64,000 nt of DNA, taken from sequence record MT682709.1; one strand, 5' to 3'. A program made the position numbers and the translations under genes. The notes below the pieces were generated by a model. It did not search any database. It saw nothing but the letters and a program-made list of their open reading frames with translations, and was not told where the DNA came from. Numbering within the stretch: position 1 is the first letter of the stretch; every line of letters begins with the position of its first letter. Positions 1,623 through 57,110 of the stretch are shown piece by piece. This DNA is from Escherichia phage vB_EcoM_SP1.

Positions 1623-1695
1623 TGGGAATTAGCCAAGTTGGTAAGGCACTGGATTTTGATTCCAGGATGCAAAGGTTCGAGTCCTTTATTCCCAG
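1623..1695 (+). tRNA. tRNA-Gln (anticodon UUG)
   Basis: Acceptor stem TGGGAAT/ATTCCCA, anticodon loop TTTTGAT, T-arm GGTTCGAGTCC. Confidence 0.85.
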
Positions 1696-1696
1696 C

Positions 1697-1783
1697 GCGA
1701 GAATGGTCAAATTGGTAAAGGCACAGCACTTAAAATGCTGCGGAATGATTTCCTTGTGGGTTCGAGTCCCACTTCTCGCACCA
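1697..1783 (+). tRNA. tRNA-Leu (anticodon UAA), class II, CCA encoded
   Basis: Acceptor GCGAGAA/TTCTCGC, anticodon loop CTTAAAA, long variable arm, CCA 1781-1783. Confidence 0.85.
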
Positions 1784-1788
1784 AATTT

Positions 1789-1862
<74 letters not shown>

Positions 1863-1872
1863 ATTTAATTTA

Positions 1873-1946
1873 CTCCGTGTAGCTCAGTTTGGTAGAGCGC
1901 CTGATTTGGGATCAGGAGGTCCAAGGTTCAAATCCTTGTATGGAGA
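1873..1946 (+). tRNA. tRNA-Pro (anticodon UGG)
   Basis: Acceptor CTCCGTG/TATGGAG with G-U pairs, anticodon loop TTTGGGA, T-arm CAAGGTTCAAATCCTTG. Confidence 0.8.
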
Positions 1947-1948
1947 CT

Positions 1949-2038
1949 GGAGGCGTGGCAGAGTGGTTTAATGCACCGGTCTTGAAAACCGGCAGTCGCT
2001 CCGGCGACTCATAGGTTCAAATCCTATCGCCTCCGCCA
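1949..2038 (+). tRNA. tRNA-Ser (anticodon UGA), class II, CCA encoded
   Basis: Acceptor GGAGGCG/CGCCTCC, anticodon loop CTTGAAA, long variable arm. Confidence 0.85.
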
Positions 2039-2043
2039 GTTTT

Positions 2044-2119
2044 GTTGATTTAGCTCAGTAGGTAGAGCACCTCACTTGTAATGAGGACGTCGGCGGTTCG
2101 ATTCCGTCAATCAGCACCA
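2044..2119 (+). tRNA. tRNA-Thr (anticodon UGU)
   Basis: Acceptor GTTGATT/AATCAGC, anticodon loop CTTGTAA, CCA encoded. Confidence 0.85.
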
Positions 2120-2120
2120 A

Positions 2121-2195
2121 GGCCCTGTAGCTGGAAGGTTCAAGCAAGCGACTCATAATCGCCAGATGGTGGTTCAATTCCACCCAGGGCCACCA
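2121..2195 (+). tRNA. tRNA-Ile (anticodon CAU, lysidine type as in T4) or Met
   Basis: Acceptor GGCCCTG/CAGGGCC, anticodon loop CTCATAA, CCA encoded. Confidence 0.75.
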
Positions 2196-2204
2196 AATTA
2201 ATTT

Positions 2205-2291
2205 GGGGAGTTATCCCGTAGAGGTAGCGGTGTGGACTGTAAATCCATTGTCATTGCGACTCGGGTGGTTCGACTCCATCACTCCCCACCA
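2205..2291 (+). tRNA. tRNA-Tyr (anticodon GUA), class II
   Basis: Acceptor GGGGAGT/ACTCCCC, anticodon loop CTGTAAA, long variable arm; architecture resembles E. coli tRNA-Tyr. Confidence 0.75.
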
Positions 2292-2295
2292 ATTT

Positions 2296-2370
2296 GGATG
2301 TGTAGCTCAATGGCAGAGCGATCGCCTGTTAAGCGATTGGTTATAGGTTCGAATCCTATCACGTCCGCCA
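2296..2370 (+). tRNA. tRNA-Asn (anticodon GUU)
   Basis: Acceptor GGATGTG/CACGTCC, anticodon stem ATCGC/GCGAT with loop CTGTTAA, T-arm ATAGGTTCGAATCCTAT. Confidence 0.75.
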
Positions 2371-2374
2371 AATC

Positions 2375-2450
2375 CGAGGCATAGCTCAGAAGGAAGAGCA
2401 AGGACCTTCTAAGTCCTAGGTCGTAGGTTCGATCCCTACTGCCTCGACCA
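2375..2450 (+). tRNA. tRNA-Arg (anticodon UCU)
   Basis: Acceptor CGAGGCA/TGCCTCG, anticodon stem AGGAC/GTCCT with loop CTTCTAA, CCA encoded. Confidence 0.85.
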
Positions 2451-3951: not shown

Positions 3952-4047
3952 AAAAATTTTTTCACAAAACTGTTTACATCCCTGTTCTTCCATGGTACTA
4001 TATCAATATCAACTACTGATACAGAAAACAACTTGGAGAATGAAATG
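3952..4047 (+). repeat. dispersed early promoter-leader cassette, copy A
   Basis: TTTTCACAAAACTGTTTACATCCCTGTTCTTCCATGGTACTATA... is near-identical to 47485-47570 and similar to 20150-20235 and 21605-21665; GTTTAC 3972-3977, TACTAT 3996-4001. Confidence 0.6.
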
Positions 4048-4308: not shown

Positions 4309-4339
4309 GTTTACACAGGCTCATGATTGAGATATTATG
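4309..4339 (+). promoter_or_regulatory. T4-type early promoter
   Basis: GTTTAC 4309-4314, TATTAT 4334-4339. Confidence 0.5.
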
Positions 4340-4363
4340 AGCCTATAATTTGAGGAAAATATT

Positions 4364-8431: not shown

Positions 8432-8462
8432 GTTTACTTCCTCCAAGGACTTTGATACTATA
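8432..8462 (+). promoter_or_regulatory. T4-type early promoter
   Basis: GTTTAC 8432-8437, GATACTAT -10 region. Confidence 0.5.
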
Positions 8463-8488
8463 CATTCATCAACTACTTGGAGGAAATT

Positions 8489-8902
8489 ATGACTCGTATC
8501 AATTTAACACTTGTTTCTGAACTGACCGACCAACATCTTATGGCTGAGTATCGTGAATTACCACGCGTATTTGGTGCAGTCCGTAAACATGTTCAAAACG
8601 GTAAACGTGTAAAGGATTTTAAAATCTCTCCAACATTTATCTTAGGCACAGGTCACGTAACATTCTTTTACGACAAACTCGAATTTTTACGTTTACGTCA
8701 AATCGAGCTAATCGCTGAATGCTTGAAACGTGGTTTCAAAATCAAGGACACGACTGTCCAGGATATTTCCGACATCCCTGTCGAATTTCGTAATAATTAT
8801 GTCCCGTCCGAAGCGTCCATTGCGATAAGTCAAGCTCGCTTAGATGAAAAAATTGCTCAACGCCCTACTTGGTACAAATACTATGGTAAATCAATTTACT
8901 AA
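8489..8902 (+). CDS. denV: endonuclease V (pyrimidine-dimer DNA glycosylase)
   Basis: [31 protein letters not shown]... matches recalled T4 endo V over its full length; ATG 8489 (track begins at TTG 8477). Confidence 0.9.
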
Positions 8903-12424: not shown

Positions 12425-12454
12425 GTTTACTTTTCCTCTTGACTGTGGTATAAT
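12425..12454 (+). promoter_or_regulatory. T4-type early promoter
   Basis: GTTTAC 12425-12430, TGGTATAAT 12446-12454. Confidence 0.55.
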
Positions 12455-12481
12455 TTTTCTATCAGTTAAGAGGAGAATAAC

Positions 12482-17243: not shown

Positions 17244-17406
17244 AAAGCAGATATTTTTAATGAAGCTAATTGAAGAATATGCTAATGCAGTTTCTGACTA
17301 TGAGTGTTCTTCTCGGGAAAGAGGTATAGCTTTCGCCAAAGAAGAAATGAAAATCATGGTTGATGCTCACACAAAGCTTCAGAATTTTATTGAAAACGTC
17401 ATTTAA
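17233..17406 (+). CDS. hypothetical small protein (57 aa)
   Basis: ATG 17233 overlapping previous gene end; below ORF-track cutoff. Confidence 0.4.
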   Translation: MKTEKQIFLMKLIEEYANAVSDYECSSRERGIAFAKEEMKIMVDAHTKLQNFIENVI

Positions 17407-17408: not shown

Positions 17409-17450
17409 GTTTACAAGTTGGCAAGGTTATGGTATAGTAATCTTGCCAAC
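17409..17450 (+). promoter_or_regulatory. early promoter embedded in an inverted repeat (PeSL-like)
   Basis: GTTTAC 17409-17414; arms GTTGGCAAG (17417-17425) and CTTGCCAAC (17442-17450) flank a 16-nt spacer containing TATAGT. Confidence 0.55.
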
Positions 17451-17570
17451 TGTCAAGGAGAAGAGAATGAAAGTTTTGTTTGTTGTGTATGTGATGATTC
17501 AATATAATTACCCAATGTTTACTTATAATCTGGTGAATAACATTATTGATATTATTCAAAGGAGTATGTA

Positions 17571-19108: not shown

Positions 19109-20118
19109 TGAAAACAATAATGAAAAGCTATTTTGGTAGTCATCTTTATGGAACTTCTACTCCAGAATCTGATGTAGATTTTAAAGAAATCTTTGTTCCT
19201 CCTGCTCGTGATATTCTTATCGGAAATGTTAAAGAGCATATGAGTAAAAACACTAACAACACATCATCTAAAAACACCAAAGATGATATTGACCATGAAC
19301 TATACAGTCTTAAATATTTCTTTAAATTAGCAGCAGATGGTGAAACTGTAGCATTGGATATGCTCCACACTCCACCTGAACTGGTAGTTAAATCTGATTT
19401 GCCTGATGTATGGAAGTTTATTCAAGACAATCGTTCACGGTTTTATACAACTAACATGAAATCCTATTTAGGATATGTTCGCAAGCAAGCTTCTAAATAT
19501 GGTGTTAAGGGTTCTCGTTTGGCCGCATTGCGTGATGTATTGAAAGCAGTTAATCAAATCCCTGATCAGTGGGTTGATTACCAAGAAGACGGTTCCATTA
19601 AGCAGCGTCGAACTAAAGTAGAAGATATTAAGCATCGTCTTCCAGAAAACGAGTTCTGTGAATGGGTATTCCATAATCATGAGAAAACAGGCCCGCAAAC
19701 GTTCTATACTGTGTTGGGTCGTAAATATCAGACAACACTTTCTCTTATTGAGCTTAAGCAGTCTTTGAATAAACTTGATGCTGAATACGGCGAACGTGCT
19801 CGTAAGGCTGAAGCGAATGAGGGTATTGACTGGAAAGCACTGAGCCATGCTTGTCGTGGTGGACTCCAACTATTGGAAATTTACAAAACTGGTGACTTGG
19901 TTTATCCACTCCAAGATGCTCCATTTATTCTCGATGTGAAGTTGGGTAAACATCCATTTAAAACGATCCAAGAGTTTTTGGAAGATGTGGTCGATCAAGT
20001 AGAAGCAGCATCCATTGAAGCTTCTAAGAACGGTATGCAGCAAAAAGTAGACATGGGTTTCTGGGATGACTTCCTTGAGAGGGTTTATCTTGAAAACCAC
20101 CGAAGTTATTATAAATAA
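19105..20118 (+). CDS. predicted nucleotidyltransferase (Pol-beta superfamily fold), 337 aa
   Basis: N-terminal motif GSHLYGTSTPESDVDF (GS-x9-SDxD) with a further acidic residue in DIDHE; helical C-terminal domain. Confidence 0.5.
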   Translation: MMKTIMKSYFGSHLYGTSTPESDVDFKEIFVPPARDILIGNVKEHMSKNTNNTSSKNTKDDIDHELYSLKYFFKLAADGETVALDMLHTPPELVVKSDLPDVWKFIQDNRSRFYTTNMKSYLGYVRKQASKYGVKGSRLAALRDVLKAVNQIPDQWVDYQEDGSIKQRRTKVEDIKHRLPENEFCEWVFHNHEKTGPQTFYTVLGRKYQTTLSLIELKQSLNKLDAEYGERARKAEANEGIDWKALSHACRGGLQLLEIYKTGDLVYPLQDAPFILDVKLGKHPFKTIQEFLEDVVDQVEAASIEASKNGMQQKVDMGFWDDFLERVYLENHRSYYK

Positions 20119-20121
20119 AAA

Positions 20122-20145
20122 GGGAGCCTTCGGGCTCCCTTTTTA
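20122..20145 (+). terminator. rho-independent terminator (UUCG hairpin)
   Basis: GGGAGCC-TTCG-GGCTCCC followed by TTTTT. Confidence 0.7.
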
Positions 20146-20149
20146 TTTC

Positions 20150-20235
20150 AAAATTTTTTCACAAAACGGTTTACAAGCATAAAGCTTTATGGTACTATAC
20201 AACTATCAACTGATACGGATTTGGAGAATAAAATG
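20150..20235 (+). repeat. early promoter-leader cassette, copy C
   Basis: AAATTTTTTCACAAAACGGTTTACA...GGTACTATACAACTATCAACTGATACGGATTTGGAGAATAAAATG; GTTTAC 20169-20174, TACTAT 20193-20198. Confidence 0.6.
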
Positions 20236-21201
20236 AAAACTGTAACTATCAATAAGGGTATCTACTTCGGTAAAGAAATCTCTGGAACTTTTGAGCTCTT
20301 AGGCGAATGGTTCCCAGATAATGCTCCGGTAGATGCACAAGGAGATGGTAAAGTTTTTGTTGAAATTGACGGTAAACGTCGCGGTGTTTGGGTTTACAAA
20401 TCAGATATTTCATATGATGGTGTAAAAGTTGAAGAAGTTAAAGAATCATATGAAGATATGAAAATCCGCATTAATAAAAGATTTAATGTTATGGGAATGA
20501 TGACGAATGGTATTATTAATGGAAATATTCGTTCATTAATTATCTCTGGCGCAGCAGGTATTGGTAAAACGTATTCTTTAGATAAAGCTTTGAATAAAGC
20601 AAATGATATTGGATACATTGAATATAAAAGCATTAATGGTAAAATCTCTGGTATTGGTCTTTATGAGCAGCTTTGGAATAATCGTGAAGAGAATTCTGTC
20701 CTTTTGATTGATGATGTGGATGTTTTCTCTGATATGGACATTCTTAATCTTCTAAAAGCTGCTCTGGACACTGGAGAGACCCGTAAAGTCTGCTGGAGCA
20801 CTGCATCTTCTTACTTAGAAGAAAAAGGCATTGACCGTGAGTTTGAATTTAAAGGAACGATTGTTTTTATCACAAACGTTGACATTGACCGCGAATTAGA
20901 CCGTGGTACTAAACTTGCCCCACACTTACAAGCATTGGTGTCCCGCTCAGTTTATTTGGATTTGGGTGTTCACACTAATGAAGAAATTATGGTCAGGGTT
21001 GAAGATGTTATTCTTTCAACTGACATGATGCAAAAGCGCGGTCTTTCTGATGAAGAAACTTATAAAGCATTATCATGGATGAAAGTTAATGTTAATCGTT
21101 TACGCAATGTTTCACTGCGTACTGCTCTTTATCTTGCTGACTTTATTATGACCGACAAAAACGGTTGGGAAGAAATTGCTGAGGTTACTCTTCTGAAATA
21201 A
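20233..21201 (+). CDS. AAA+ family ATPase (Walker A GAAGIGKT, Walker B LLIDDVD), 322 aa
   Basis: ATG 20233 after GGAGAATAAA (track begins at TTG 20221); Walker motifs. Confidence 0.6.
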   Translation: MKTVTINKGIYFGKEISGTFELLGEWFPDNAPVDAQGDGKVFVEIDGKRRGVWVYKSDISYDGVKVEEVKESYEDMKIRINKRFNVMGMMTNGIINGNIRSLIISGAAGIGKTYSLDKALNKANDIGYIEYKSINGKISGIGLYEQLWNNREENSVLLIDDVDVFSDMDILNLLKAALDTGETRKVCWSTASSYLEEKGIDREFEFKGTIVFITNVDIDRELDRGTKLAPHLQALVSRSVYLDLGVHTNEEIMVRVEDVILSTDMMQKRGLSDEETYKALSWMKVNVNRLRNVSLRTALYLADFIMTDKNGWEEIAEVTLLK

Positions 21202-21607: not shown

Positions 21608-21637
21608 GTTTACAAGACTGTTCCTCTGTGGTACTAT
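21608..21637 (+). promoter_or_regulatory. T4-type early promoter (cassette copy D)
   Basis: GTTTAC 21608-21613, TACTAT 21632-21637, leader ACAACTATCAACTACGGAGGAACAGAAAATG. Confidence 0.55.
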
Positions 21638-21665
21638 ACAACTATCAACTACGGAGGAACAGAAA

Positions 21666-22193
21666 ATGAACGCTAAAGATATTTTCAACCTGGTAAATTA
21701 CAACGATGGTAAATTTAAATCTGAAGCACAAAGTAAGTTCTTTAACGACATCTCAATCGGAGGTGAAATCACTGTTGATGGAGGACAAATTTACAAATCC
21801 CGTTGGAATTGGATCGTTATTATCGATGAGATTGGTATTGTAGAAATTTACAAGAATACGAATAAAAATCGTACATTACACTGGTCTCGTGATACTAACG
21901 AACAGTACAAAAAGGATAAAGCATCTAAAATGTCTCGTGTAACTCAAGAAGATATTGAGTTCATCAAGAAAGATATTTTAATGTATGATAACTTAATTGC
22001 TGAAGAGCAAGCTGTTATTGATAAATTTGATGAGATTAAAGCTTCTCGTGAAATTCCTGATTTTATGAAAGAATCAGTAAATGAACGATACTCTCTCATT
22101 TCAGAGCGTATTGAAACTTACAAAAAGCAAAGAGCTGAACGCCAAAATACTCTTCGGAAGTTTGAAGAACGGTTAAAGACGGTACTCGCATAA
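21666..22193 (+). CDS. hypothetical protein (175 aa)
   Basis: ATG with GGAGGAACAGAAA RBS. Confidence 0.6.
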   Translation: MNAKDIFNLVNYNDGKFKSEAQSKFFNDISIGGEITVDGGQIYKSRWNWIVIIDEIGIVEIYKNTNKNRTLHWSRDTNEQYKKDKASKMSRVTQEDIEFIKKDILMYDNLIAEEQAVIDKFDEIKASREIPDFMKESVNERYSLISERIETYKKQRAERQNTLRKFEERLKTVLA

Positions 22194-24588: not shown

Positions 24589-24617
24589 TTTACTTCACCA
24601 CAAGGATGTGGTATAAT
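24588..24617 (+). promoter_or_regulatory. T4-type early promoter
   Basis: GTTTAC 24588-24593, TGGTATAAT 24609-24617. Confidence 0.55.
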
Positions 24618-44689: not shown

Positions 44690-47386
44690 ATGAAAGAATT
44701 TTATATCTCTATCGAAACAGTCGGAAATAATATTGTTGAACGTTATATTGATGAAAATGGAAAGGAACGTACTCGTGAAGTAGAATATCTTCCGACTATG
44801 TTTAGACATTGTAAGGAAGAATCAAAATACAAAGACATTTACGGTAAAAACTGCGCTCCTCAAAAATTTCCATCAATGAAAGATGCCCGAGATTGGATGA
44901 AACGAATGGAAGACATCGGTCTCGAAGCTCTCGGTATGAACGATTTTAAACTCGCTTATATCAGTGATACATATGGTTCAGAAATTGTTTATGACCGAAA
45001 ATTTGTTCGTGTAGCTAACTGTGACATTGAGGTTACTGGCGATAAATTTCCTGACCCAATGAAAGCAGAATATGAAATTGATGCTATCACTCATTATGAT
45101 TCAATTGACGACCGTTTTTACGTCTTTGATTTGTTGAATTCAATGTACGGTTCAGTATCAAAATGGGATGCAAAGTTAGCTGCTAAGCTTGACTGTGAAG
45201 GTGGTGATGAAGTTCCTCAAGAAATTCTTGACCGAGTAATTTATATGCCATTTGATAATGAGCGTGATATGCTCATGGAATATATTAATCTCTGGGAACA
45301 GAAACGACCTGCTATTTTTACCGGTTGGAATATTGAGGGATTTGACGTTCCGTATATCATGAATCGTGTTAAAATGGTTCTCGGTGAACGTAGTATGAAA
45401 CGCTTCTCTCCAATCGGTCGAGTAAAATCTAAACTAATTCAAAATATGTACGGTAGCAAAGAAATTTATTCTATTGATGGCGTATCTATTCTTGATTATT
45501 TAGATTTGTACAAGAAATTCGCATTTACTAATTTGCCATCATTCTCTTTGGAATCAGTTGCTCAACATGAAACCAAAAAAGGTAAATTACCATATGATGG
45601 TCCTATTAATAAACTTCGTGAGACTAATCATCAACGATACATTAGTTATAATATTATTGACGTAGAATCAGTTCAAGCAATTGATAAAATTCGTGGGTTT
45701 ATCGATCTAGTTTTAAGTATGTCTTATTATGCTAAAATGCCTTTTTCTGGTGTAATGAGTCCTATTAAAACTTGGGATGCTATTATTTTTAACTCATTGA
45801 AAGGTGAACATAAGGTTATTCCTCAACAAGGTTCGCACGTTAAACAAAGTTTTCCAGGTGCATTTGTGTTTGAACCTAAAGCGATTGCCCGTCGATACAT
45901 TATGAGTTTTGACTTGACGTCTCTGTATCCAAGTATTATTCGTCAGGTTAACATTAGTCCTGAGACTATTCGCGGACAGTTCAAAGTTCATCCAATTCAT
46001 GAATATATCGCAGGAACAGCTCCTAAGCCAAGTGATGAGTATTCATGTTCTCCGAATGGATGGATGTATGATAAGCATCAAGAAGGTATCATTCCAAAGG
46101 AAATCGCTAAAGTATTTTTCCAGCGTAAAGATTGGAAAAAGAAAATGTTCGCTGAAGAAATGAATGCCGAAGCTATTAAAAAGATTATTATGAAAGGTGC
46201 AGGGTCTTGTTCAACTAAACCAGAAGTTGAACGATATGTTAAGTTCAATGATGATTTCTTAAATGAATTATCGAATTACACCGAATCTGTTCTTAATAGT
46301 CTGATCGAAGAATGTGAAAAAGCAGCTACACTTGCTAACACAAATCAGCTGAACCGTAAAATTCTTATTAACAGTCTTTATGGTGCTCTTGGCAATATTC
46401 ATTTCCGCTATTATGATTTGCGAAATGCTACTGCTATCACAATTTTTGGTCAAGTTGGTATTCAGTGGATTGCTCGTAAAATTAATGAATATCTGAATAA
46501 AGTATGTGGAACTGATGGTGAAGATTTCATCGCAGCAGGTGATACTGATTCGGTATATGTTTGTGTAGATAAAGTAATTGAAAAAGTAGGTCTTGACCGC
46601 TTTAAAGAACAAAATGATTTAGTTGAATTCATGAATCAGTTCGGTAAGAAAAAGATGGAACCTATGATTGATGTTGCATATCGTGAGTTATGTGATTATA
46701 TGAATAACCGCGAGCATCTGATGCATATGGACCGTGAAGCTATTTCTTGTCCTCCGCTTGGTTCAAAGGGTGTTGGTGGATTTTGGAAAGCGAAAAAACG
46801 TTATGCTCTAAACGTTTATGATATGGAAGATAAGCGATTTGCTGAACCACATCTAAAAATCATGGGTATGGAAACTCAGCAGAGTTCAACACCAAAAGCA
46901 GTACAAGAAGCTCTCGAAGAAAGTATTCGTCGCATTCTTCAGGAAGGCGAAGAGTCTGTCCAAGAATACTATAAGAACTTTGAGAAAGAATATCGTCAAC
47001 TTGACTATAAAGTTATTGCTGAAGTAAAAACCGCAAACGATATAGCGAAATATGACGATAAAGGTTGGCCAGGATTTAAATGCCCGTTCCACATTCGTGG
47101 GGTGCTAACTTATCGTCGAGCTGTTAGCGGTTTAGGTGTAGCTCCAATTTTGGATGGAAATAAAGTAATGGTTCTTCCATTACGTGAGGGAAATCCATTT
47201 GGTGACAAGTGTATTGCTTGGCCATCGGGTACGGAACTTCCAAAAGAAATTCGTTCTGATGTACTGTCTTGGATTGACTACTCAACTTTGTTCCAAAAAT
47301 CGTTTGTTAAACCGCTTGCGGGTATGTGTGAATCGGCGGGTATGGACTATGAAGAAAAAGCTTCGTTAGACTTCCTGTTTGGCTGA
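44690..47386 (+). CDS. 43: DNA polymerase gp43
   Basis: 898 aa; family B polymerase motifs (exo FDIE, pol DTDS); N-terminus MKEFYISIETVGNNIVERYIDENGKERTREVEYLPTMF... Confidence 0.95.
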   Translation: MKEFYISIETVGNNIVERYIDENGKERTREVEYLPTMFRHCKEESKYKDIYGKNCAPQKFPSMKDARDWMKRMEDIGLEALGMNDFKLAYISDTYGSEIVYDRKFVRVANCDIEVTGDKFPDPMKAEYEIDAITHYDSIDDRFYVFDLLNSMYGSVSKWDAKLAAKLDCEGGDEVPQEILDRVIYMPFDNERDMLMEYINLWEQKRPAIFTGWNIEGFDVPYIMNRVKMVLGERSMKRFSPIGRVKSKLIQNMYGSKEIYSIDGVSILDYLDLYKKFAFTNLPSFSLESVAQHETKKGKLPYDGPINKLRETNHQRYISYNIIDVESVQAIDKIRGFIDLVLSMSYYAKMPFSGVMSPIKTWDAIIFNSLKGEHKVIPQQGSHVKQSFPGAFVFEPKAIARRYIMSFDLTSLYPSIIRQVNISPETIRGQFKVHPIHEYIAGTAPKPSDEYSCSPNGWMYDKHQEGIIPKEIAKVFFQRKDWKKKMFAEEMNAEAIKKIIMKGAGSCSTKPEVERYVKFNDDFLNELSNYTESVLNSLIEECEKAATLANTNQLNRKILINSLYGALGNIHFRYYDLRNATAITIFGQVGIQWIARKINEYLNKVCGTDGEDFIAAGDTDSVYVCVDKVIEKVGLDRFKEQNDLVEFMNQFGKKKMEPMIDVAYRELCDYMNNREHLMHMDREAISCPPLGSKGVGGFWKAKKRYALNVYDMEDKRFAEPHLKIMGMETQQSSTPKAVQEALEESIRRILQEGEESVQEYYKNFEKEYRQLDYKVIAEVKTANDIAKYDDKGWPGFKCPFHIRGVLTYRRAVSGLGVAPILDGNKVMVLPLREGNPFGDKCIAWPSGTELPKEIRSDVLSWIDYSTLFQKSFVKPLAGMCESAGMDYEEKASLDFLFG

Positions 47387-47399
47387 TAGAATAAATCTA

Positions 47400-47420
47400 G
47401 GGACCTCCGGGTCCCTTTTT
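47400..47420 (+). terminator. rho-independent terminator
   Basis: GGGACC-TCCG-GGTCCC followed by TTTTT. Confidence 0.7.
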
Positions 47421-47484
47421 CATACAAGTAATATAAATCTATACTTAGGAAAAATAGATGATTCTGGACCTCTGGAATTCATTA

Positions 47485-47570
47485 AAAGTTTTTTCACAAA
47501 ACTGTTTACATCTCTGTTCTTCCGTGGTACTATACAACTATCAACTGATGCGGATTTGGAGAATGAAATG
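47485..47570 (+). repeat. early promoter-leader cassette, copy B
   Basis: AAAGTTTTTTCACAAAACTGTTTACATCTCTGTTCTTCCGTGGTACTATACAACTATCAACTGATGCGGATTTGGAGAATGAAATG; near-identical to copy A; GTTTAC 47504-47509. Confidence 0.6.
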
Positions 47571-47948
47571 AAAATCGCTATTTTGGTTATTGCATTGGGT
47601 CTTACTGGTTGTGTAGCTCAAGGACCGGTAGTAAATCAATCTGATGTAGGAAAAATTGTAAACTGTTCAAGCAAATTTTATAATCCTAATGTTAAGTGTT
47701 ATAAAGAAGCTCCAAAACAGACAGTAGAACAAATGCAGGCGAATTTTGACGAAGCTATTCGTCCAGATGAATCTGCACAAGCATATCGTAATTCAGATGT
47801 GATTACGCGTGAAGAAAAAATTGAAAGTTACTGTGCCGAACTTTGGGCTAATTGGGCTAATAATTATCAATGGCGTACTGGTAAAAATGCTCCGATGGAG
47901 TATGTAGTAAATTCTTATAATTCATGTGTAAAAAATTTGACTAAGTGA
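47568..47948 (+). CDS. lipoprotein (126 aa)
   Basis: ATG 47568 after GGAGAATGAA; signal peptide with lipobox LTGC; the longer track ORF 47379..47948 spans the promoter and is not the real N-terminus. Confidence 0.6.
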   Translation: MKIAILVIALGLTGCVAQGPVVNQSDVGKIVNCSSKFYNPNVKCYKEAPKQTVEQMQANFDEAIRPDESAQAYRNSDVITREEKIESYCAELWANWANNYQWRTGKNAPMEYVVNSYNSCVKNLTK

Positions 47949-47955
47949 GGAAAAC

Positions 47956-48207
47956 ATGGAAACTTTAGTAGCAGGTTCAATTTTTATGGTTTTAGTTTCA
48001 GGTGTGTTGGCTATTATTATATACATGCTTCCGTGGTTCATCGCCTTGATGCGTGGGTCAAAATCGACAGTAGGAATCTTTTTCACATCTTTACTGTTTA
48101 ACTGGTCAATCATTGGTTGGTTTATTACATTTATTTGGTCAATTGCGGGTGAAACTAAAAAATCTGTACAGCAAAATCAAGTAATTATCATCAGAGAGAA
48201 GGAATGA
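47956..48207 (+). CDS. imm: immunity (superinfection exclusion) membrane protein Imm
   Basis: 83 aa with two TM segments between genes 43 and 42, as T4 imm. Confidence 0.75.
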   Translation: METLVAGSIFMVLVSGVLAIIIYMLPWFIALMRGSKSTVGIFFTSLLFNWSIIGWFITFIWSIAGETKKSVQQNQVIIIREKE

Positions 48208-48353
48208 AAAGCAAAATTTTAGCAGTATTGCTTTTAATCTTGATGATTATAATAAGTATATACTATAGCGTAGCAGTTCCTTGTATGATTCCAACTATTA
48301 TTTTAGGCTGGAGCTTATTACTGTTACAAGTTAAATATGAATGTATCAATTGA
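48204..48353 (+). CDS. small hydrophobic peptide (49 aa)
   Basis: ATG overlapping imm stop (ATGA); below ORF-track cutoff. Confidence 0.4.
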   Translation: MKSKILAVLLLILMIIISIYYSVAVPCMIPTIILGWSLLLLQVKYECIN

Positions 48354-48360
48354 GGTTTAA

Positions 48361-49101
48361 ATGATTAATGACTCTATGACAGTTGAAGAAACCCGTCTTC
48401 ATTTGGGAATTGCATTAAAGGAAAAAGATTTCGTAGTTGATAAAACTGGTGTTAAAACTATTGAAATTATTGGCGCATCATTTGTAGCAGATGAACCTTT
48501 TATTTTTGGTGCTCTTAATGATGAATACATTCAACGTGAACTTGAATGGTATAAATCTAAAAGTTTGTTTGTTAAAGATATTCCAGGCGAAACGCCAAAG
48601 ATTTGGCAACAGGTAGCATCTTCTAAAGGTGAAATTAACTCGAATTATGGTTGGGCTATCTGGTCAGAAGATAACTATGCCCAGTATGATATGTGTTTAG
48701 CTGAACTTGGTCAAAATCCTGATTCTCGCCGCGGTATCATGATTTATACTCGTCCATCCATGCAGTTTGACTACAACAAAGATGGTATGTCAGATTTCAT
48801 GTGTACGAATACAGTACAGTACCTGATTCGTGATAAGAAAGTCAATGCAGTAGTAAGCATGCGTTCAAATGACGTGGTCTTTGGATTCCGTAATGATTAT
48901 GCATGGCAAAAATACGTACTAGATAAATTAGTATCTGATTTGAATGCAGGTGATTCAACTCGTCAGTATAAAGCAGGTTCCATTATATGGAATGTTGGAA
49001 GCCTTCATGTGTATTCTCGTCATTTTTATTTGGTTGACCATTGGTGGAAAACTGGCGAAACTCATATTGCGAAAAAAGATTATAACGGTGAGTGGAAATG
49101 A
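48361..49101 (+). CDS. 42: dCMP hydroxymethylase gp42
   Basis: 246 aa; thymidylate-synthase-like fold; position as T4 gene 42. Confidence 0.9.
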   Translation: MINDSMTVEETRLHLGIALKEKDFVVDKTGVKTIEIIGASFVADEPFIFGALNDEYIQRELEWYKSKSLFVKDIPGETPKIWQQVASSKGEINSNYGWAIWSEDNYAQYDMCLAELGQNPDSRRGIMIYTRPSMQFDYNKDGMSDFMCTNTVQYLIRDKKVNAVVSMRSNDVVFGFRNDYAWQKYVLDKLVSDLNAGDSTRQYKAGSIIWNVGSLHVYSRHFYLVDHWWKTGETHIAKKDYNGEWK

Positions 49102-49940
49102 TTCAATTCGTAATTCCAAGCTATCAACGCGTAGGGGCAGTTTCTGCCCTTGATATGTTTCCGACTGATTATGAACCTCATATTGTAGTACGTGAACACG
49201 AAGAAAAAGCTTATTATGACGCTTACGGGTCTAGAGCTAAAATTGTAGTTATTCCCGATGATGTAAATGGAATTGCTGGAACTCGTAAAGCAATTACTGA
49301 TATGTATGCAGGTCAACGAATTTGGATGATCGATGATGATACTACTATTCGTATGAGTTCAATGCGAAAGAAAGATGATCGTCGCTGCGTAGATAAAATT
49401 AATCAATTAACTCGTGAACAGTTCTATGAATTGATTCAATACGTTGAAGATGCCATGGATTGCGGGTATTATCATGGCCATGCTCGTCTACCTATTTTTA
49501 AAATTACTTCATCTTGGGGTAATTATCGTGAAAATTCATATGGATTCACGAATACATGGTATGACCTTGGAAAACTTACAACAGAACAAATTGGGTATGG
49601 AAAAATTGATTTATGCGAAGATATGTATGCATTTCTCAATTTAATTAATCAAGGTTATCCGCATTTGGCCTTGTTCAAATATCTGGTTGTATCCGGAAAA
49701 GCACAAGCCCCCGGTGGATGTAGTTCAATTCGTAGCAATTCTAAACATAATAGAGCGCTTGAGCAAATCAATAGAGAATTTCCAGAGCAAGCTCGTTGGA
49801 AAACATCGAATATTGAAAAGAGAAAATCGTTGGGTGAAGAAGATGAGCCATTAAAGGTTCTTCGCATGTGTGTTTCGCGCAAAGAAAAATCAGAAGCGTT
49901 TCATAAGTTTAATGCTATTCATCCAATAGTAGTTGATTAA
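49098..49940 (+). CDS. putative GT-A fold glycosyltransferase (DxD motif) at the T4 beta-gt position
   Basis: 280 aa from ATG 49098 (ATGA overlap with gene 42); WMIDDDTT motif; not similar to recalled T4 beta-gt. Confidence 0.6.
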   Translation: MIQFVIPSYQRVGAVSALDMFPTDYEPHIVVREHEEKAYYDAYGSRAKIVVIPDDVNGIAGTRKAITDMYAGQRIWMIDDDTTIRMSSMRKKDDRRCVDKINQLTREQFYELIQYVEDAMDCGYYHGHARLPIFKITSSWGNYRENSYGFTNTWYDLGKLTTEQIGYGKIDLCEDMYAFLNLINQGYPHLALFKYLVVSGKAQAPGGCSSIRSNSKHNRALEQINREFPEQARWKTSNIEKRKSLGEEDEPLKVLRMCVSRKEKSEAFHKFNAIHPIVVD

Positions 49941-50017
49941 TGCCTAAATTTATTGTGTTATAATTACTCTATCTTTAACCGGTGAGGAAAATATAATGAT
50001 GCCTATGGAAAAAATGA

Positions 50018-51199
50018 ATGTCTATTGCAGATTTAAAATCCCGTTTGATTAAAGCTTCCACTTCTAAAATGACTGCTGAACTGACTACATCTAAATTCTT
50101 TAATGAAAAGGATGTAATCCGTACAAAAATCCCAATGCTTAATATTGCTATTTCCGGTGCGATTGATGGTGGTATGCAGTCTGGTTTAACCATTTTTGCA
50201 GGTCCTTCTAAACACTTTAAATCAAATATGTCTTTGACTATGGTTGCGGCGTATTTGAACAAATATCCTGATGCAGTTTGTCTATTTTATGATAGCGAAT
50301 TTGGTATCACTCCAGCTTATTTGCGATCCATGGGAGTTGACCCGGAACGAGTAATTCATACACCAATTCAGTCAGTTGAACAACTGAAAATTGATATGGT
50401 GAATCAGCTTGAAGCTATTGAGCGTGGTGAAAAGGTTATTGTATTCATCGACTCAATCGGTAATATGGCTTCTAAGAAAGAAACGGAAGATGCCTTGAAT
50501 GAAAAATCTGTGGCAGATATGACTCGTGCTAAATCGCTGAAGTCATTATTCCGTATTGTTACTCCTTATTTTAGTATTAAAAATATTCCATGCGTTGCGG
50601 TTAACCATACAATTGAAACAATTGAAATGTTTAGTAAAACCGTGATGACAGGTGGTACAGGCGTAATGTATTCGGCTGATACTGTATTCATTATCGGTAA
50701 GCGCCAGATTAAAGATGGTTCTGATCTTCAGGGGTATCAATTTGTTCTAAATGTAGAAAAATCTCGTACCGTTAAAGAAAAAAGTAAATTCTTTATTGAT
50801 GTTAAATTTGACGGTGGTATCGATCCTTATTCTGGATTGTTAGATATGGCTCTTGAATTAGGATTTGTAGTAAAACCTAAAAATGGCTGGTATGCTCGTG
50901 AATTTCTTGACGAAGAAACAGGCGAGATGATTCGCGAAGAAAAATCTTGGCGTGCAAAAGATACCAACTGCACTACATTCTGGGGTCCTTTATTTAAGCA
51001 TCAACCATTCCGAGATGCTATTAAACGTGCTTATCAATTAGGTGCTATTGATAGTAATGAAATTGTTGAAGCCGAAGTTGATGAATTAATTAACTCAAAG
51101 GTTGAAAAATTTAAATCTCCAGAAAGTAAAAGTAAATCAGCAGCTGATTTAGAAACTGACCTAGATCAGTTAAGTGATATGGAAGAATTTAATGAATAA
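50018..51199 (+). CDS. uvsX: RecA-like recombinase UvsX
   Basis: 393 aa; MSIADLKSRLIKASTSK...; Walker A GPSKHFKS; matches recalled T4 UvsX. Confidence 0.9.
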   Translation: MSIADLKSRLIKASTSKMTAELTTSKFFNEKDVIRTKIPMLNIAISGAIDGGMQSGLTIFAGPSKHFKSNMSLTMVAAYLNKYPDAVCLFYDSEFGITPAYLRSMGVDPERVIHTPIQSVEQLKIDMVNQLEAIERGEKVIVFIDSIGNMASKKETEDALNEKSVADMTRAKSLKSLFRIVTPYFSIKNIPCVAVNHTIETIEMFSKTVMTGGTGVMYSADTVFIIGKRQIKDGSDLQGYQFVLNVEKSRTVKEKSKFFIDVKFDGGIDPYSGLLDMALELGFVVKPKNGWYAREFLDEETGEMIREEKSWRAKDTNCTTFWGPLFKHQPFRDAIKRAYQLGAIDSNEIVEAEVDELINSKVEKFKSPESKSKSAADLETDLDQLSDMEEFNE

Positions 51200-51530
51200 A
51201 GATGATTTAGATTTAGAAATTATCGACGAATCCCCCTCTTCGGAGGGGGAAGAAGAAAGAAAAGAACGTCTTTTTAATGAATCTCTTAAGATAATTAAAT
51301 CTGCCATGGAAAATGTTATCCAGGAGATTATCATTAAACTAGAAGATGGTTCTACACACATTGTGTATGTGACAAAATTAGATTGGGTTGATGGAAAAGT
51401 CGTAATGGACTTTGCTGTTCTTGACCAAGAAAGAAAAGCTGAGTTAGCTCCTCATGTAGAAAAATGTATTACAATGCAACTACAAGATGCATTTAATAAA
51501 AGGTCAAAGAAAAAATTTAAATTCTTTTAA
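51192..51530 (+). CDS. 40: gp40-like protein (112 aa)
   Basis: ATG 51192 overlapping uvsX stop; sits between uvsX and 41 as T4 gene 40. Confidence 0.55.
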   Translation: MNKDDLDLEIIDESPSSEGEEERKERLFNESLKIIKSAMENVIQEIIIKLEDGSTHIVYVTKLDWVDGKVVMDFAVLDQERKAELAPHVEKCITMQLQDAFNKRSKKKFKFF

Positions 51531-51539
51531 GGAGTAAGT

Positions 51540-52967
51540 GTGGTAGAAATTATTCTTTCTCATCTCATATTTGATCAAGCTTATTTTTCAAAAGTTTGGC
51601 CATATATGGATTCAGAATATTTTGAAAGTGGTCCAGCTAAAAATACATTCAAATTAATTAAATCTCATGTTAATGAGTACCATAGCGTTCCATCTATTAA
51701 TGCGTTAAATGTTGCATTAGAAAATAGTTCATTTACTGAAACAGAATATTCTGGTGTAAAAACACTTATTTCAAAACTAACCGATTCTCCGGAAGACCAT
51801 AGCTGGTTAGTAAAAGAAACAGAAAAATATGTTCAGCAAAGGGCGATGTTTAACGCCACATCTAAAATAATTGAAATTCAAACCAATGCTGAGCTTCCTC
51901 CAGAAAAACGAAATAAGAAAATGCCAGATGTAGGTGCTATTCCTGACATCATGCGCCAAGCATTATCAATTTCATTTGATAGCTACGTTGGCCATGATTG
52001 GATGGATGACTACGAAGCACGTTGGCTATCTTATATGAATAAAGCTCGTAAGGTTCCATTTAGACTCAAAATTCTAAATAAAATTACTAAAGGCGGAGCT
52101 GAAACTGGAACACTGAACGTTTTAATGGCTGGTGTTAACGTTGGTAAGTCATTAGGTCTGTGTTCATTGGCAGCAGATTATTTGCAGCTCGGACATAATG
52201 TTCTTTACATTTCCATGGAAATGGCAGAAGAAGTCTGTGCTAAACGTATTGACGCTAATATGCTCGATGTTTCTCTTGATGACATTGATGATGGGCATAT
52301 TTCTTACGCTGAATATAAAGGAAAAATGGAAAAATGGCGTGAGAAATCTACTCTCGGCCGTTTAATCGTTAAACAGTATCCTACTGGTGGAGCAGACGCT
52401 AATACATTTCGATCGCTTTTAAACGAATTGAAGCTCAAGAAGAATTTTGTTCCAACGATCATTATTGTCGACTATCTAGGTATTTGTAAATCTTGCCGCA
52501 TCAGAGTTTACTCAGAAAATAGTTACACAACTGTTAAAGCTATCGCAGAGGAATTGCGTGCTCTGGCTGTTGAAACCGAAACTGTTCTTTGGACTGCAGC
52601 ACAGGTTGGTAAGCAAGCTTGGGATTCTTCTGATGTTAACATGAGCGATATTGCAGAATCTGCCGGTCTTCCAGCAACAGCCGATTTTATGCTTGCGGTC
52701 ATTGAAACCGAGGAGTTAGCAGCTGCTGAACAACAACTCATTAAGCAAATCAAATCACGATATGGTGATAAGAATAAATGGAATAAGTTTTTGATGGGTG
52801 TTCAAAAAGGAAATCAGAAATGGGTAGAAATTGAACAAGATTCTACTCCAACTGAAGTTAACGAAGTAGCAGGTTCGCAACAGATACAAGCTGAGCAGAA
52901 TCGCTATCAAAGAAATGAATCTACTCGAGCCCAGTTAGATGCTTTAGCAAACGAATTAAAATTTTAG
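51540..52967 (+). CDS. 41: replicative DNA helicase gp41 (DnaB-like)
   Basis: 475 aa; GTG start; Walker A AGVNVGKS; matches recalled T4 gp41. Confidence 0.9.
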   Translation: MVEIILSHLIFDQAYFSKVWPYMDSEYFESGPAKNTFKLIKSHVNEYHSVPSINALNVALENSSFTETEYSGVKTLISKLTDSPEDHSWLVKETEKYVQQRAMFNATSKIIEIQTNAELPPEKRNKKMPDVGAIPDIMRQALSISFDSYVGHDWMDDYEARWLSYMNKARKVPFRLKILNKITKGGAETGTLNVLMAGVNVGKSLGLCSLAADYLQLGHNVLYISMEMAEEVCAKRIDANMLDVSLDDIDDGHISYAEYKGKMEKWREKSTLGRLIVKQYPTGGADANTFRSLLNELKLKKNFVPTIIIVDYLGICKSCRIRVYSENSYTTVKAIAEELRALAVETETVLWTAAQVGKQAWDSSDVNMSDIAESAGLPATADFMLAVIETEELAAAEQQLIKQIKSRYGDKNKWNKFLMGVQKGNQKWVEIEQDSTPTEVNEVAGSQQIQAEQNRYQRNESTRAQLDALANELKF

Positions 52968-53003
52968 TTTACAATCTGACAAGACTATGGTATAGTAGTC
53001 TTG
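52967..53003 (+). promoter_or_regulatory. early promoter with inverted repeat around the -10 (PeSL-like)
   Basis: GTTTAC 52967-52972; CAAGACTA (52980-52987) / TAGTCTTG (52996-53003) flank TGGTATAG. Confidence 0.55.
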
Positions 53004-53026
53004 TTGGTTAAATTGGGGAAATTATT

Positions 53027-53218
53027 ATGGAATTAGCAAAGATTGTTTTTATTGGCTGGTTTGAAAATGGTAATATGTTTACCAAAGAAATCACTATGGA
53101 TGTGTCTGATAAAGATCAAATTCTATGGGTCACTTCACAACTTGCTGAAGTTAATAAAGCTTTAGTTAAAGCATTTGTTAATGATAAAAAAGTTTTTGAA
53201 TCTGATTGGCGAGGGTAA
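53027..53218 (+). CDS. dmd: Dmd (discriminator of mRNA degradation; antitoxin to host RnlA/LsoA)
   Basis: 63 aa; MELAKIVFIGWFENGNMFTKEITM... resembles recalled T4 Dmd; immediately downstream of gene 41. Confidence 0.7.
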   Translation: MELAKIVFIGWFENGNMFTKEITMDVSDKDQILWVTSQLAEVNKALVKAFVNDKKVFESDWRG

Positions 53219-53219
53219 T

Positions 53220-53462
53220 ATGCATACGGTTTTATTTAAACCTACTCCGTATAACGTCAGGAAAAATACTCAATTCAAAGCACTTATTGCAGATACGTGG
53301 GAATTGGTGTTAGATATTCCAGCAGAAGAAAGTCCTCCATTTGGTCGAGTGGAATTTATTAAGTTTGCTGTGCGCCATACGAAGCGACAGATTCGCCAAT
53401 GCAAAAGATACTTTCGTAAAATAGTCAAGTTAGAGAAACAGTTATTGATGCTAGTAAAATAG
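53220..53462 (+). CDS. hypothetical basic protein (80 aa)
   Basis: ATG 53220 (TAATATG) in track frame. Confidence 0.5.
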   Translation: MHTVLFKPTPYNVRKNTQFKALIADTWELVLDIPAEESPPFGRVEFIKFAVRHTKRQIRQCKRYFRKIVKLEKQLLMLVK

Positions 53463-53464
53463 TA

Positions 53465-53507
53465 GTTTACAAGCTGATAGAGTTGTGTTATAGTAATTCT
53501 ATCAGCT
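53465..53507 (+). promoter_or_regulatory. early promoter embedded in a 10-bp inverted repeat (PeSL-like)
   Basis: GTTTAC 53465-53470; arms AGCTGATAGA (53472-53481) / TCTATCAGCT (53498-53507) with TATAGT in the 16-nt spacer. Confidence 0.55.
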
Positions 53508-53525
53508 AATCGCGGAGAAAAGAAA

Positions 53526-53780
53526 ATGATGCTAGTTAATAGAGAATATCAGTTTAAATCAGAAGAAGATTTGGAAAAATTCGCAAGTGGTTGTGAACTG
53601 AATAGACGCACAGCTAAAGTCATAGGATTAAAACCCTTTACAGTTCTAGATTGTGAAGTTTCTAAATTCCGCAGAGGGTGTTCTATTAGCGGTCATGCTC
53701 TGGTTGATGGGAACACATTTTTCTTTGTTTTTAGCGTCAGAGAACTTTTATTGATTAACGAACTTGAGGAAATAAAATAG
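53526..53780 (+). CDS. hypothetical protein (84 aa)
   Basis: ATG after GGAGAAAAGAAA leader. Confidence 0.55.
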   Translation: MMLVNREYQFKSEEDLEKFASGCELNRRTAKVIGLKPFTVLDCEVSKFRRGCSISGHALVDGNTFFFVFSVRELLLINELEEIK

Positions 53781-53810
53781 TTTACTTTTGTTAGAAATTG
53801 AGATACTATA
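53780..53810 (+). promoter_or_regulatory. T4-type early promoter
   Basis: GTTTAC 53780-53785, TACTAT 53805-53810. Confidence 0.55.
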
Positions 53811-53837
53811 TAAACATAAACTACTGAGGAGATTATC

Positions 53838-54131
53838 ATGAAAAAATTTGTTTTTGCTGCAATTTTTGCTTTAGCTTCTTGCGCTGCTCAGCCTGCTATG
53901 GCAGGTTATGATAAAGATTTGTGCGAATGGTCTATGACTGCAGATCAGACTGAGGTTGAAACTCAGATTGAAGCAGATATTATGAATATCGTTGAGCGTG
54001 ATCGCCCTGAAATGAAAGCTAAAGTACAAAAACAGCTTAAGTCTGGTGGTGTAATGCAGTATAATTATGTTCTGTATTGCGATAAAAACTTCAATAATAA
54101 AAATATCATCGCTGAAGTGGTAGGTGAATAA
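53838..54131 (+). CDS. sp: spackle periplasmic protein Sp
   Basis: 97 aa with signal peptide; MKKFVFAAIFALASCAAQPAMAGYDKDLCEWSMTADQ... matches recalled T4 Sp. Confidence 0.8.
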   Translation: MKKFVFAAIFALASCAAQPAMAGYDKDLCEWSMTADQTEVETQIEADIMNIVERDRPEMKAKVQKQLKSGGVMQYNYVLYCDKNFNNKNIIAEVVGE

Positions 54132-54757
54132 TGCTTTATCAAATGCACAAGTGCAAAGACACGTACAAATATAAAGGTGCCCAGTGTTATATCATTAATC
54201 GTGAAAACGCAGGTCCAGGTCATTCGCATCAATCAAGATTTGTATTTGTTAAAAATAATGAAATTATAGCAGTTGCTAATTACGTGCTTGTGACTAGTGA
54301 TGTTAATCCGGTGCCTTTTACATATTATAATCTAATGGACTTGGCGTACGATTATAATTGGTTTAATCGTGACACTTTGGCTCATATCGAAGGCGTAGGA
54401 TTTGACATCTCTTACTCTAGTTACTCGTTGTGTCCTATGAGCCGAGCTCATAAAGAGCCTGAATATTTTTCATTTCGGCGGCGCGTAGACTTTAAACGCA
54501 GCACAGAGTATATTGGTGGAATCTTTGTTAAAGATAATCGAATTACTCGCATTATTTATCCTTTGGGTTGTGGTCAAAAAGATATTGATGTTGATTTAGA
54601 CTTTACTGAAAACATCATTAATCATATTGCTTCTGTGTATTTTGATATTGATCACAAAATTGTAATATGCGGATATGAATTACCATCGGAAAAACAGTTT
54701 AAAGTAAAAGTTTCTATTGATGACCAAATTTTTAATGCTTTTATGAATAGAGGTTAA
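54131..54757 (+). CDS. hypothetical protein (208 aa)
   Basis: ATG overlapping sp stop. Confidence 0.6.
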   Translation: MLYQMHKCKDTYKYKGAQCYIINRENAGPGHSHQSRFVFVKNNEIIAVANYVLVTSDVNPVPFTYYNLMDLAYDYNWFNRDTLAHIEGVGFDISYSSYSLCPMSRAHKEPEYFSFRRRVDFKRSTEYIGGIFVKDNRITRIIYPLGCGQKDIDVDLDFTENIINHIASVYFDIDHKIVICGYELPSEKQFKVKVSIDDQIFNAFMNRG

Positions 54758-54758
54758 T

Positions 54759-54923
54759 ATGAAAACATATAAAGAATTTATTAAAGAAGATATGGTAGCT
54801 GGAGATTCAGGTGGTAATCCTGAAAATATCTCTACTGGAACAACGTCAGGCGCTGTAGTAAATAAAGGTCCTGAACAGATTCCTAAAAAGAAAAAAGAGG
54901 AATCTAAAGAAAAAGAAGAGTAA
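54759..54923 (+). CDS. small internal-protein-like peptide with capsid-targeting leader (MKTYKEFIKED), 54 aa
   Basis: ATG 54759 right after previous stop, ends 3 nt before the gene 61 ATG; Gly/Lys-rich tail; below ORF-track cutoff. Confidence 0.5.
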   Translation: MKTYKEFIKEDMVAGDSGGNPENISTGTTSGAVVNKGPEQIPKKKKEESKEKEE

Positions 54924-54925
54924 AA

Positions 54926-56151: not shown

Positions 56152-56222
56152 ATGTCCTCCTTATTGCTTTATATATTTATTGTATAATTAATCTACTAAT
56201 CCATGAATTGAAAGGAAAAATA

Positions 56223-56741: not shown

Positions 56742-56823
56742 TAGCTCGTTTATTTAAACGACGACTTAAAAGCCGCGAGAATTATTATAAATAATCATGT
56801 AATTTAAATAAAAGGAGAATTAC

Positions 56824-57069: not shown

Positions 57070-57076
57070 AATTCAA

Positions 57077-57100: not shown

Positions 57101-57110
57101 CATTTAAACA

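Follow-up and report, generated by a model that had tools for sequence, protein, structure and literature searches.

Early promoters combined with stem-loops were defined in phages RB49 and phi1 as PeSLs: these fall into five positional subclasses, the commonest of which have the stem-loop between the boxes or overlapping the -10, and G-T pairs are marked within the stem-loops in the published figure (Arbiol et al., 2010; PMC2839356). The stem-loop was proposed to terminate or attenuate transcription arriving from upstream, and one such stem-loop matched rrnB T1 in the reduction of lacZ expression that it caused; the reporter evidence for promoter and terminator/attenuator activity of PeSLs, and that for mini-circles which arise when cassettes recombine, comes from RB49/phi1 elements only (PMC2839356). 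PeSLs were later extended to PST/T4 and nt-1/KVP40, with the stem-loops of the T4/PST pair placed 'just upstream of the promoter' (Comeau et al., 2014; PMC4122927).

T4 itself is also known to have hairpins that enclose a promoter: the leader hairpins of e, soc, 49 and I-TevI occlude translation (PMC3014915), and two 2010 reviews of T4, this one among them, describe leader hairpins for these genes and none around early promoters. As at the sites discussed below, the promoter lies inside the hairpin DNA, long transcripts fold and proximal transcripts are without the 5' arm; the internal promoter of e, soc, 49 and I-TevI is, however, a late one and the helix takes in the Shine-Dalgarno (SD) or the AUG, whereas our three sites have early promoters and an SD outside the helix. 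A third point of comparison is provided by terminators and by the C(UUCG)G intercistronic hairpins of T4, reportedly described by Tuerk and colleagues in 1988. They share with the present hairpins a position directly after a cistron, and either type can stand 3' of gene 41. The hairpins here differ in being without a U-tract, in having AU-richer stems and loops of 6-16 nt that hold the -10, and in overlapping the next promoter, which terminators and C(UUCG)G hairpins precede.

The window, by which we mean the whole 64,000-nucleotide stretch of phage vB_EcoM_SP1 analysed here, has all its long ORFs on the + strand and is matched at 90-99% identity by about 500 Tequatrovirus (T4-like) genomes. 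Read counter-clockwise, the T4 early region has the gene order of the window: the tRNA cluster, denV, regB, tk, rI, mobD.x, nrdC.x and 55, continuing with 47, 46, 45, 44, 62, regA, 43, 42, uvsX, 40, 41, dmd, 61.x and 61. Within it, an earlier note based on the sequence had likened three early promoters to promoter-early stem-loop cassettes, a resemblance that is upheld by the comparison below: the kind of element is already known, in this very genus. We put a probability of about 70% on the reading that each is a PeSL-type composite, in which the hairpin serves as intercistronic punctuation in read-through RNA and the promoter's own transcript escapes it.

Anatomy of the three promoter hairpins

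The earlier note had described GTTTAC at 17409, 52967 and 53465, each followed by a 9-10 bp inverted repeat around the -10. All three repeats are present, with the place and the symmetry claimed for them, although their arm lengths had been given slightly too short. They have a common layout: the left arm lies in the -35/-10 spacer, TATAGT in the loop, and the right arm, which begins at the last T of the -10 or just past it, over the predicted start. The three promoters read TTTACA-N17-TATAGT, with TG upstream of the -10 and AT-rich upstream flanks; the distance between the stop codon upstream and GTTTAC is -1 to 2 nt, and that from the end of the right arm to the ATG is 16-22 nt. All features of these sites given below are on the + strand.

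Site 1 is the promoter before a 34-aa mobD.2 homologue, among small mobD.x ORFs. Its -35 box, GTTTACA (17409-17415), stands 2 nt past the TAA of the upstream ORF (17404-17406). The left arm AGTTGGCAAGGTTA (17416-17429), in the -35/-10 spacer, and the right arm TAATCTTGCCAACT (17438-17451) form a 14-bp helix of 13 Watson-Crick pairs and one G.U, with a perfect core of 10 bp, AGTTGGCAAG/CTTGCCAACT. The loop, UGGUAUAG, occupies 17430-17437 and holds the -10 TATAGT (17433-17438), whose final T opens the right arm. The right arm also includes the predicted +1 (about 17445); the SD AAGGAG (17455-17460) and the ATG (17467) are both outside the helix.

Site 2 is the promoter of dmd, directly 3' of gene 41: the G of its -35 box GTTTACA (52967-52973) also ends the TAG stop codon of gene 41 (52965-52967). 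The left arm ACAAGACTA (52979-52987) makes 9 bp with the right arm TAGTCTTGT (52996-53004) across an 8-nt loop (52988-52995), which is identical to the loop of site 1, UGGUAUAG, and contains the -10 TATAGT (52991-52996). The +1 is predicted at about 53003 and the dmd ATG is at 53027. Site 3 is the promoter before an 84-aa ORF without a T4 counterpart, its -35 box GTTTACA (53465-53471) lying 2 nt past the stop codon of a 61.4 homologue (53460-53462). Here the left arm AGCTGATAGA (53472-53481) pairs over 10 bp with the right arm TCTATCAGCT (53498-53507), and the -10 TATAGT (53489-53494) lies in a 16-nt loop (53482-53497); the predicted fold adds 4 pairs (2 A-U, 2 G.U), bringing the helix to 14 pairs and the loop down to 8 nt. 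GGAG follows at 53514-53517, and the ORF opens at the ATG at 53526.

RNA folding gives -21.7, -17.5 and -18.0 kcal/mol for sites 1, 2 and 3, with z-scores of -4.8, -3.7 and -3.4 relative to dinucleotide shuffles. The SD and the ATG are unpaired in the folds of all three sites, the SD in the minimum-free-energy and centroid folds alike. Translational occlusion at these sites is hence quite improbable in our view: the principle is established in T4 (PMC3014915), and the right arms of the neighbouring denV, regB and ORF 21666 hairpins are Shine-Dalgarno sequences, but those of the three sites stop well ahead of the ATG, at the distance given above, and leave the SD free.

The geometry of the three sites recurs in RB49: at the promoters at 42355, 39130, 36985, 3201 and 2832 the spacer holds the left arm and the loop the -10, with the right arm just past the latter. 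Other points of likeness to PeSLs are the sigma-70-type early promoter, the AT-rich sequence upstream, the variable arms, the G-T pairs and the gene-cassette indels. The promoters follow the T4/PST consensus TTTACW-N17-TAYWAT, with TATAGT off TAYWAT at one position; the stem-loops, of 9-14 bp and -17.5 to -21.7 kcal/mol, bracket the -10; and the hyperplastic setting of small ORFs and indel boundaries is found in the site 3 cassette and in the position of site 1 among the mobD.x ORFs. Given this and the RB49 layout, the three sites bear every sequence-level hallmark of the PeSL family. They depart from described members in two respects: the hairpins bracket the -10 as in phi1/RB49, unlike the placement given for T4/PST in PMC4122927, and their stems are AU-richer than the polyG/polyC stems of RB49.

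An Rfam scan returned no family at the hairpin sites, its sole matches being 10 tRNAs, and for these regions the T4 GenBank record (AF158101) gives gene names, with neither promoters nor terminators nor stem-loops among its features. The tRNA genes form a cluster of 10 on the + strand, at window positions 1623-2447, that corresponds to the T4-type tRNA region.

Dyad symmetry and its gene context

GTTTAC occurs 67 times in the window against 31 expected. As the window promoter set we took the 25 + strand sites of the form GTTTAC-N16-18-TAnnnT in which the hexamer equals TATAAT at no fewer than four positions. A perfect Watson-Crick stem bracketing the -10 reaches at least 8 bp in 6/25 of these promoters and at least 9 bp in 5/25. 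In 1000 trials in which the spacer and the downstream 56 nt were shuffled, the corresponding means were 0.67 and 0.17, with maxima of 4 and 2; in 1000 samples of random window positions of equal geometry they were 0.85 and 0.31, with maxima of 5 and 4. The window counts are thus higher than in each of the 1000 shuffles and each of the 1000 random-position samples.

For a wider sample we combined the window with 120 related loci from IMG/VR, chosen around homologues of mobD.1, gene 41, tk and gene 61, which together make up 1.7 Mb of T4-like early regions. Among 417 distinct promoters, a helix that reaches 8 bp or more surrounds the -10 in 141 (34%), versus 7.5% of shuffles and 5.8% of random positions, and one that reaches 10 bp or more does so in 62 (15%), versus 0.8% and 0.4%; counts over the related loci are raw and, as these phages share ancestry, not phylogenetically independent. 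Chance symmetry of AT-rich sequence does produce 8-bp stems at about 3% of random positions with matching geometry, but across the 417 promoters stems of at least 10 bp exceed the controls 20-35 fold. This excess and the window counts refute chance as the source, leaving it practically no probability. The comparison of GTTTAC promoters with shuffled controls that the earlier note had proposed thus comes out with dyad symmetry clearly more frequent at the promoters: it is real there, and far beyond chance.

The strong helices fall into two kinds, short-loop (3-16 nt) and long-loop (17-29 nt). Helices of the short-loop kind have a right arm that adjoins or overlaps the -10, and between their end and the ATG lie 13-45 nt (median 19). 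Members of this kind in the window are sites 1-3 and AGGCTCAT/ATGAGCCT (4317-4344, + strand), which encloses the -10 of the promoter with GTTTAC at 4309. The left arm precedes the predicted +1 in 52/52 unique short-loop helices, and the median end point of the right arm is +3. Hence, the promoter's own transcript cannot form the hairpin and only RNA started further upstream can: the lack of a 5' arm in the own transcript, a feature of the e, soc, 49 and I-TevI hairpins, is found in every case, given the predicted starts.

Hairpin promoters also differ from others in what precedes them. The stop codon upstream is no more than 12 nt away from GTTTAC in 63/74 hairpin promoters vs 160/343 others (p = 5e-10); at short-loop promoters the median gap between stop and GTTTAC is 2 nt, and the stop is often a TAG that shares the G of GTTTAC, as at site 2. 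A canonical terminator within 70 nt upstream accompanies 2/74 hairpin promoters vs 52/343 others (p = 0.002), tight stop-promoter spacing and missing room for a terminator being linked variables. The stretch 3' of gene 41 contains, in related phages, either an embedded hairpin or a promoter without one that is preceded by a UUCG-loop terminator, and never both. The pattern says that the embedded hairpin replaces a separate post-cistron hairpin where room for one is missing.

The terminator-then-promoter layout is also seen in the window itself. The hairpin-less promoters at 20169, 47504 and 57111 each have a canonical GC-rich hairpin with a T-run just upstream (20113-20148, 47399-47416 and 57075-57096, respectively).

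Among the 52 unique short-loop helices none (0/52) is followed by a U-tract, taken as at least 5 T in the next 8 nt; these 8 nt are 49% A. A consensus terminator scan, run on 45000-64000 only, did not flag sites 2 and 3. On these grounds we rejected a canonical intrinsic (Rho-independent) terminator. With the U-tract missing, canonical intrinsic termination is not predicted and classical termination is doubtful. Existing annotation of relatives reflects both faces of the element: OL960581 (L123, 745-790 and 1233-1278) has the label 'rho-independent terminator' (WebGeSTer/TransTermHP) on its orthologues of sites 2 and 3, and phage Lutter (L124, 1410-1439; MT682714) has 'promoter' on that of site 1. 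Each label is half right, the terminator one being without the support of a U-tract.

Pairing, strand bias and inversion of the hairpins

The arms differ between the sites while the symmetry is kept, as the earlier note had it, and the same is seen between orthologous sites of related phages. Its corollary, namely selection on pairing and not on one binding sequence, is supported by the A-U/G.U/G-C series of site 1 and by the arms found after gene 41. Across twelve orthologues of site 1 (9 distinct sequences) 126/126 pair cells are paired: one pair is A-U in T4, G.U in PST, T6, AR1 and Lutter, and G-C in the window, and a second is A-U or G.U across the orthologues. A covariation test on site 1 alone is not significant, with 279/500 shuffles reaching the observed score, because only two pairs vary. 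3' of gene 41, diverse phages have hairpins with the unrelated arms ACAAGACTA, GGTAGGGCTAT, GATAGGGCTA, GTGTAGGAGC and GATAGGAC; in this comparison gp41 is 63-99% identical between phages and the downstream genes differ. After gene 41, the loci L017 and L019 are related by a compensatory change from G-C to A-U, for which L020 has the G.U intermediate.

These observations weigh heavily against the idea that the repeats are palindromic operators, at which a dimeric DNA-binding protein would regulate the promoters. Such an operator would agree with a dyad symmetry centred on the -10 and with the TGATAG/CTATCA-like cores common to some arms; however, the arms of the three sites are unrelated, orthologous sites change arms yet keep pairing, the spacing of the arms ranges from 3 to 16 nt, and the CTATCA core belongs to a conserved motif past the -10 that is present in hairpin-less promoters too. 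Since arms and spacing vary, we reject a protein operator, which we regard as very improbable.

The non-Watson-Crick pairs point to the strand on which the pairing is read. Single substitutions in a palindrome are expected, under neutrality, to produce as many G.T as A.C. Among the internal pairs of short-loop helices that are not Watson-Crick, about 10 independent ones are G.U, 1 is A.C and 2 are other; pair types at helix ends were left out of these counts, being set by fixed promoter sequence (TG before the -10; A/C after GTTTAC). Chance helices (shuffles, random positions and weak stems) do not have this G.U bias; neither do the internal mismatches of the long-loop, SD-pairing class (1 G.U, 6 A.C and 9 other), many of which lie where the helix enters the constrained -35 box. 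As a G.U on the + strand is an A.C on the other strand, the constraint fits sense-strand RNA and speaks against a cruciform. This favours a hairpin that acts in read-through RNA, rather than in DNA or in the promoter's own transcript.

The repeat has nevertheless left traces at the DNA level. In the orthologues of 17416-17451 in L125 (OR887633), L126 (MZ234040) and L134 (PP925831) the hairpin is flipped: the loop, CTATACCA or CTATATCA, equals TGGTATAG or TGATATAG exactly after reverse complementation. A G.U pair has turned into A.C in phage Pinarejo, as is expected from inversion of the arms too. Flips are present in at least 9 records (seven identical to G3G7, plus SH_GT and Pinarejo) and go back to at least 3 source haplotypes. 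A flip alters only 4/141 positions, and the TAnnnT hexamer that results (TATCAT or TACCAT) remains 17 nt from TTTACA; judging from these boxes the promoter may survive. The inversions show that the repeat is active in DNA as well.

They are also of relevance to control at the DNA level, by which a cruciform in supercoiled DNA would remove or expose the -10 and make promoter activity dependent on superhelicity. Such a switch would resemble the promoter with a palindromic -10 reportedly engineered by Horwitz and Loeb in 1988. The position of the -10 exactly in the loop and the whole-hairpin inversions among relatives agree with it, and the mechanism by which early promoters are shut off is described as not fully understood (PMC3014915). 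We nonetheless consider a cruciform switch improbable: each sense-strand G.U would be an A.C in the hairpin of the other strand, and most Tequatrovirus orthologues of site 1 have two of them; loops of 8-16 nt are unfavourable for extrusion; and a promoter-intrinsic switch leaves unexplained why the presence of a hairpin goes with stop-codon distance and with a missing terminator.

Exchange of whole cassettes is likewise seen in these regions. Site 3 and its 84-aa ORF (MMLVNREYQFK...), at 53465-53780, are absent from T4 and have a GTTTAC promoter at each boundary; of about 500 Tequatrovirus records, 70 contain the cassette (at least 99% identity), and in vB_EcoM_SA20RB an identical site 3 promoter-hairpin stands ahead of a different, 60-aa ORF. 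Site 2 adjoins the core gene 41, and there is no indel there within the genus. The cassettes are conserved repeats of about 60 nt that mark gene-cassette exchange boundaries, as seen at site 3. With cassettes swapped between phages, and inversions that are strand-switch or recombination events at repeats, the symmetry might be a functionless by-product of templated (quasi-palindrome) mutation or of cassette recombination. We hold this to be unlikely: templated correction leads to perfect palindromes and not to the stable G.U states of most relatives, neither the one-sided G.U bias nor the link to abutting stop codons and missing terminators is predicted by it, and unrelated arms recur at one genomic position in distant phages.

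Punctuation of read-through RNA, the reading we prefer, could operate as follows. A strong sigma-70 early promoter (GTTTACA, 17 nt, TATAGT) is packed directly against the upstream stop codon, with the hairpin encoded in the promoter positions that are free to vary, namely the spacer and the +1 region. RNA started further upstream would cross the promoter, and a stem of 9-14 bp would form immediately past the upstream cistron. This stem might attenuate or terminate read-through, as measured for one RB49/phi1 PeSL stem-loop, or it might block 3' exonucleases and so define and stabilise the 3' end of the upstream message. The promoter's own transcript, starting within the right arm, would be without the left arm and have an unstructured leader and a free Shine-Dalgarno. 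Formation of the hairpin in vivo is thus probable on this reading, with attenuation and 3'-end protection as its candidate roles; the first of these would follow by analogy with one published reporter assay of a different, GC-rich stem-loop. In T4 an RNA 3' end is reported just after a stem-loop upstream of gene 41 (PMC12152347); in the literature we found no transcript-end data (T4 5'/3'-end maps) for the three sites.

Were this so, the element would be a solution to packing, in which the end of one message and the next promoter share a single 45-nt stretch, and it belongs to cassettes that are thought to drive gene shuffling in T4-like phages. The increments over earlier work are modest: the statistics, the sense-strand G.U bias, the complementarity with terminators, the link to abutting stop codons and the hairpin inversions. 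They leave the known picture unchanged and sharpen a testable hypothesis on the punctuation of T4 read-through early RNA.

Long-loop helices and other promoter-linked repeats

In the long-loop kind, a TTCTCC-like left arm directly follows GTTTAC and the right arm is the Shine-Dalgarno; the helices of denV, regB and ORF 21666 have 9-12 bp and a left arm of TTCCTCC-like sequence. At the denV promoter (GTTTAC at 8432) TTCCTCCAAG/CTTGGAGGAA spans 8438-8485 on the + strand, with the left arm directly after the -35 and with the Shine-Dalgarno of denV, 3 nt ahead of its ATG, as the right arm CTTGGAGGAA. At the regB promoter (GTTTAC at 12425) TCCTCTTGACTG/CAGTTAAGAGGA (12434-12474, + strand) has 11 Watson-Crick pairs and 1 G.U, and the right arm contains the Shine-Dalgarno. 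At the promoter at 21608 the right arm of CTGTTCCTC/GAGGAACAG (21618-21662, + strand) contains the SD of ORF 21666-22193. As one arm is the SD, the ribosome binding site of these genes is expected to be occluded in read-through RNA and not in promoter-proximal RNA. The three hairpins resemble those of e, soc, 49 and I-TevI in having the SD in the helix, but the promoter inside them is an early one.

A broader interpretation of both classes is tentative, and taken as a whole we think it doubtful. Promoter hairpins without a U-tract may be a general RNA-level device that takes the place of terminators where a stop codon abuts a promoter; they may act on read-through only, as barriers to 3' exonucleases or as ribosome-sensitive structures, and such barriers, once the RNA is cleaved close to the GGAG/SD downstream, may define the upstream message. 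Whole-hairpin flipping in the DNA could, in addition, be a recurrent way of altering promoters. If this were the case, the device would, along with the SD-pairing variant of denV, regB and others, provide graded gene expression that depends on the promoter of origin.

The SD-pairing arrangement is kept, with different arms, by orthologues in many T4-like phages. A related geometry is seen at 59238-59270, where the left arm of ATGATAGC/GCTATCAT overlaps the -10 (TATGAT) of the promoter at 59213 and the right arm the ATG at 59257; similar ATG-pairing helices are present in other phages, e.g. L078, L103 and L109. At 604-630 an AT-only repeat, TATTTAAAA/TTTTAAATA, brackets the -35 (GTTTAC at 616) and not the -10.

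Sequence conservation at many early promoters extends well past both boxes, in the form TACTAT-acaac-TATCAACTAC-(t/g)GAGGAG; promoters with this extended motif are at 995-1060, 3972-4030, 8432-8490, 20169-20240, 21608-21668 and 47504-47580. A conserved ATCAAC motif just past the -10 underlies several right arms (CCTATCAA, TCTATCA). Finally, a small hairpin, CCACAaggaTGTGG (24595-24610), lies wholly inside the -35/-10 spacer of the promoter at 24588; L024 and L025 have its motif again 3' of gene 41, and L013, L018, L037, L038 and L043 have a similar one.
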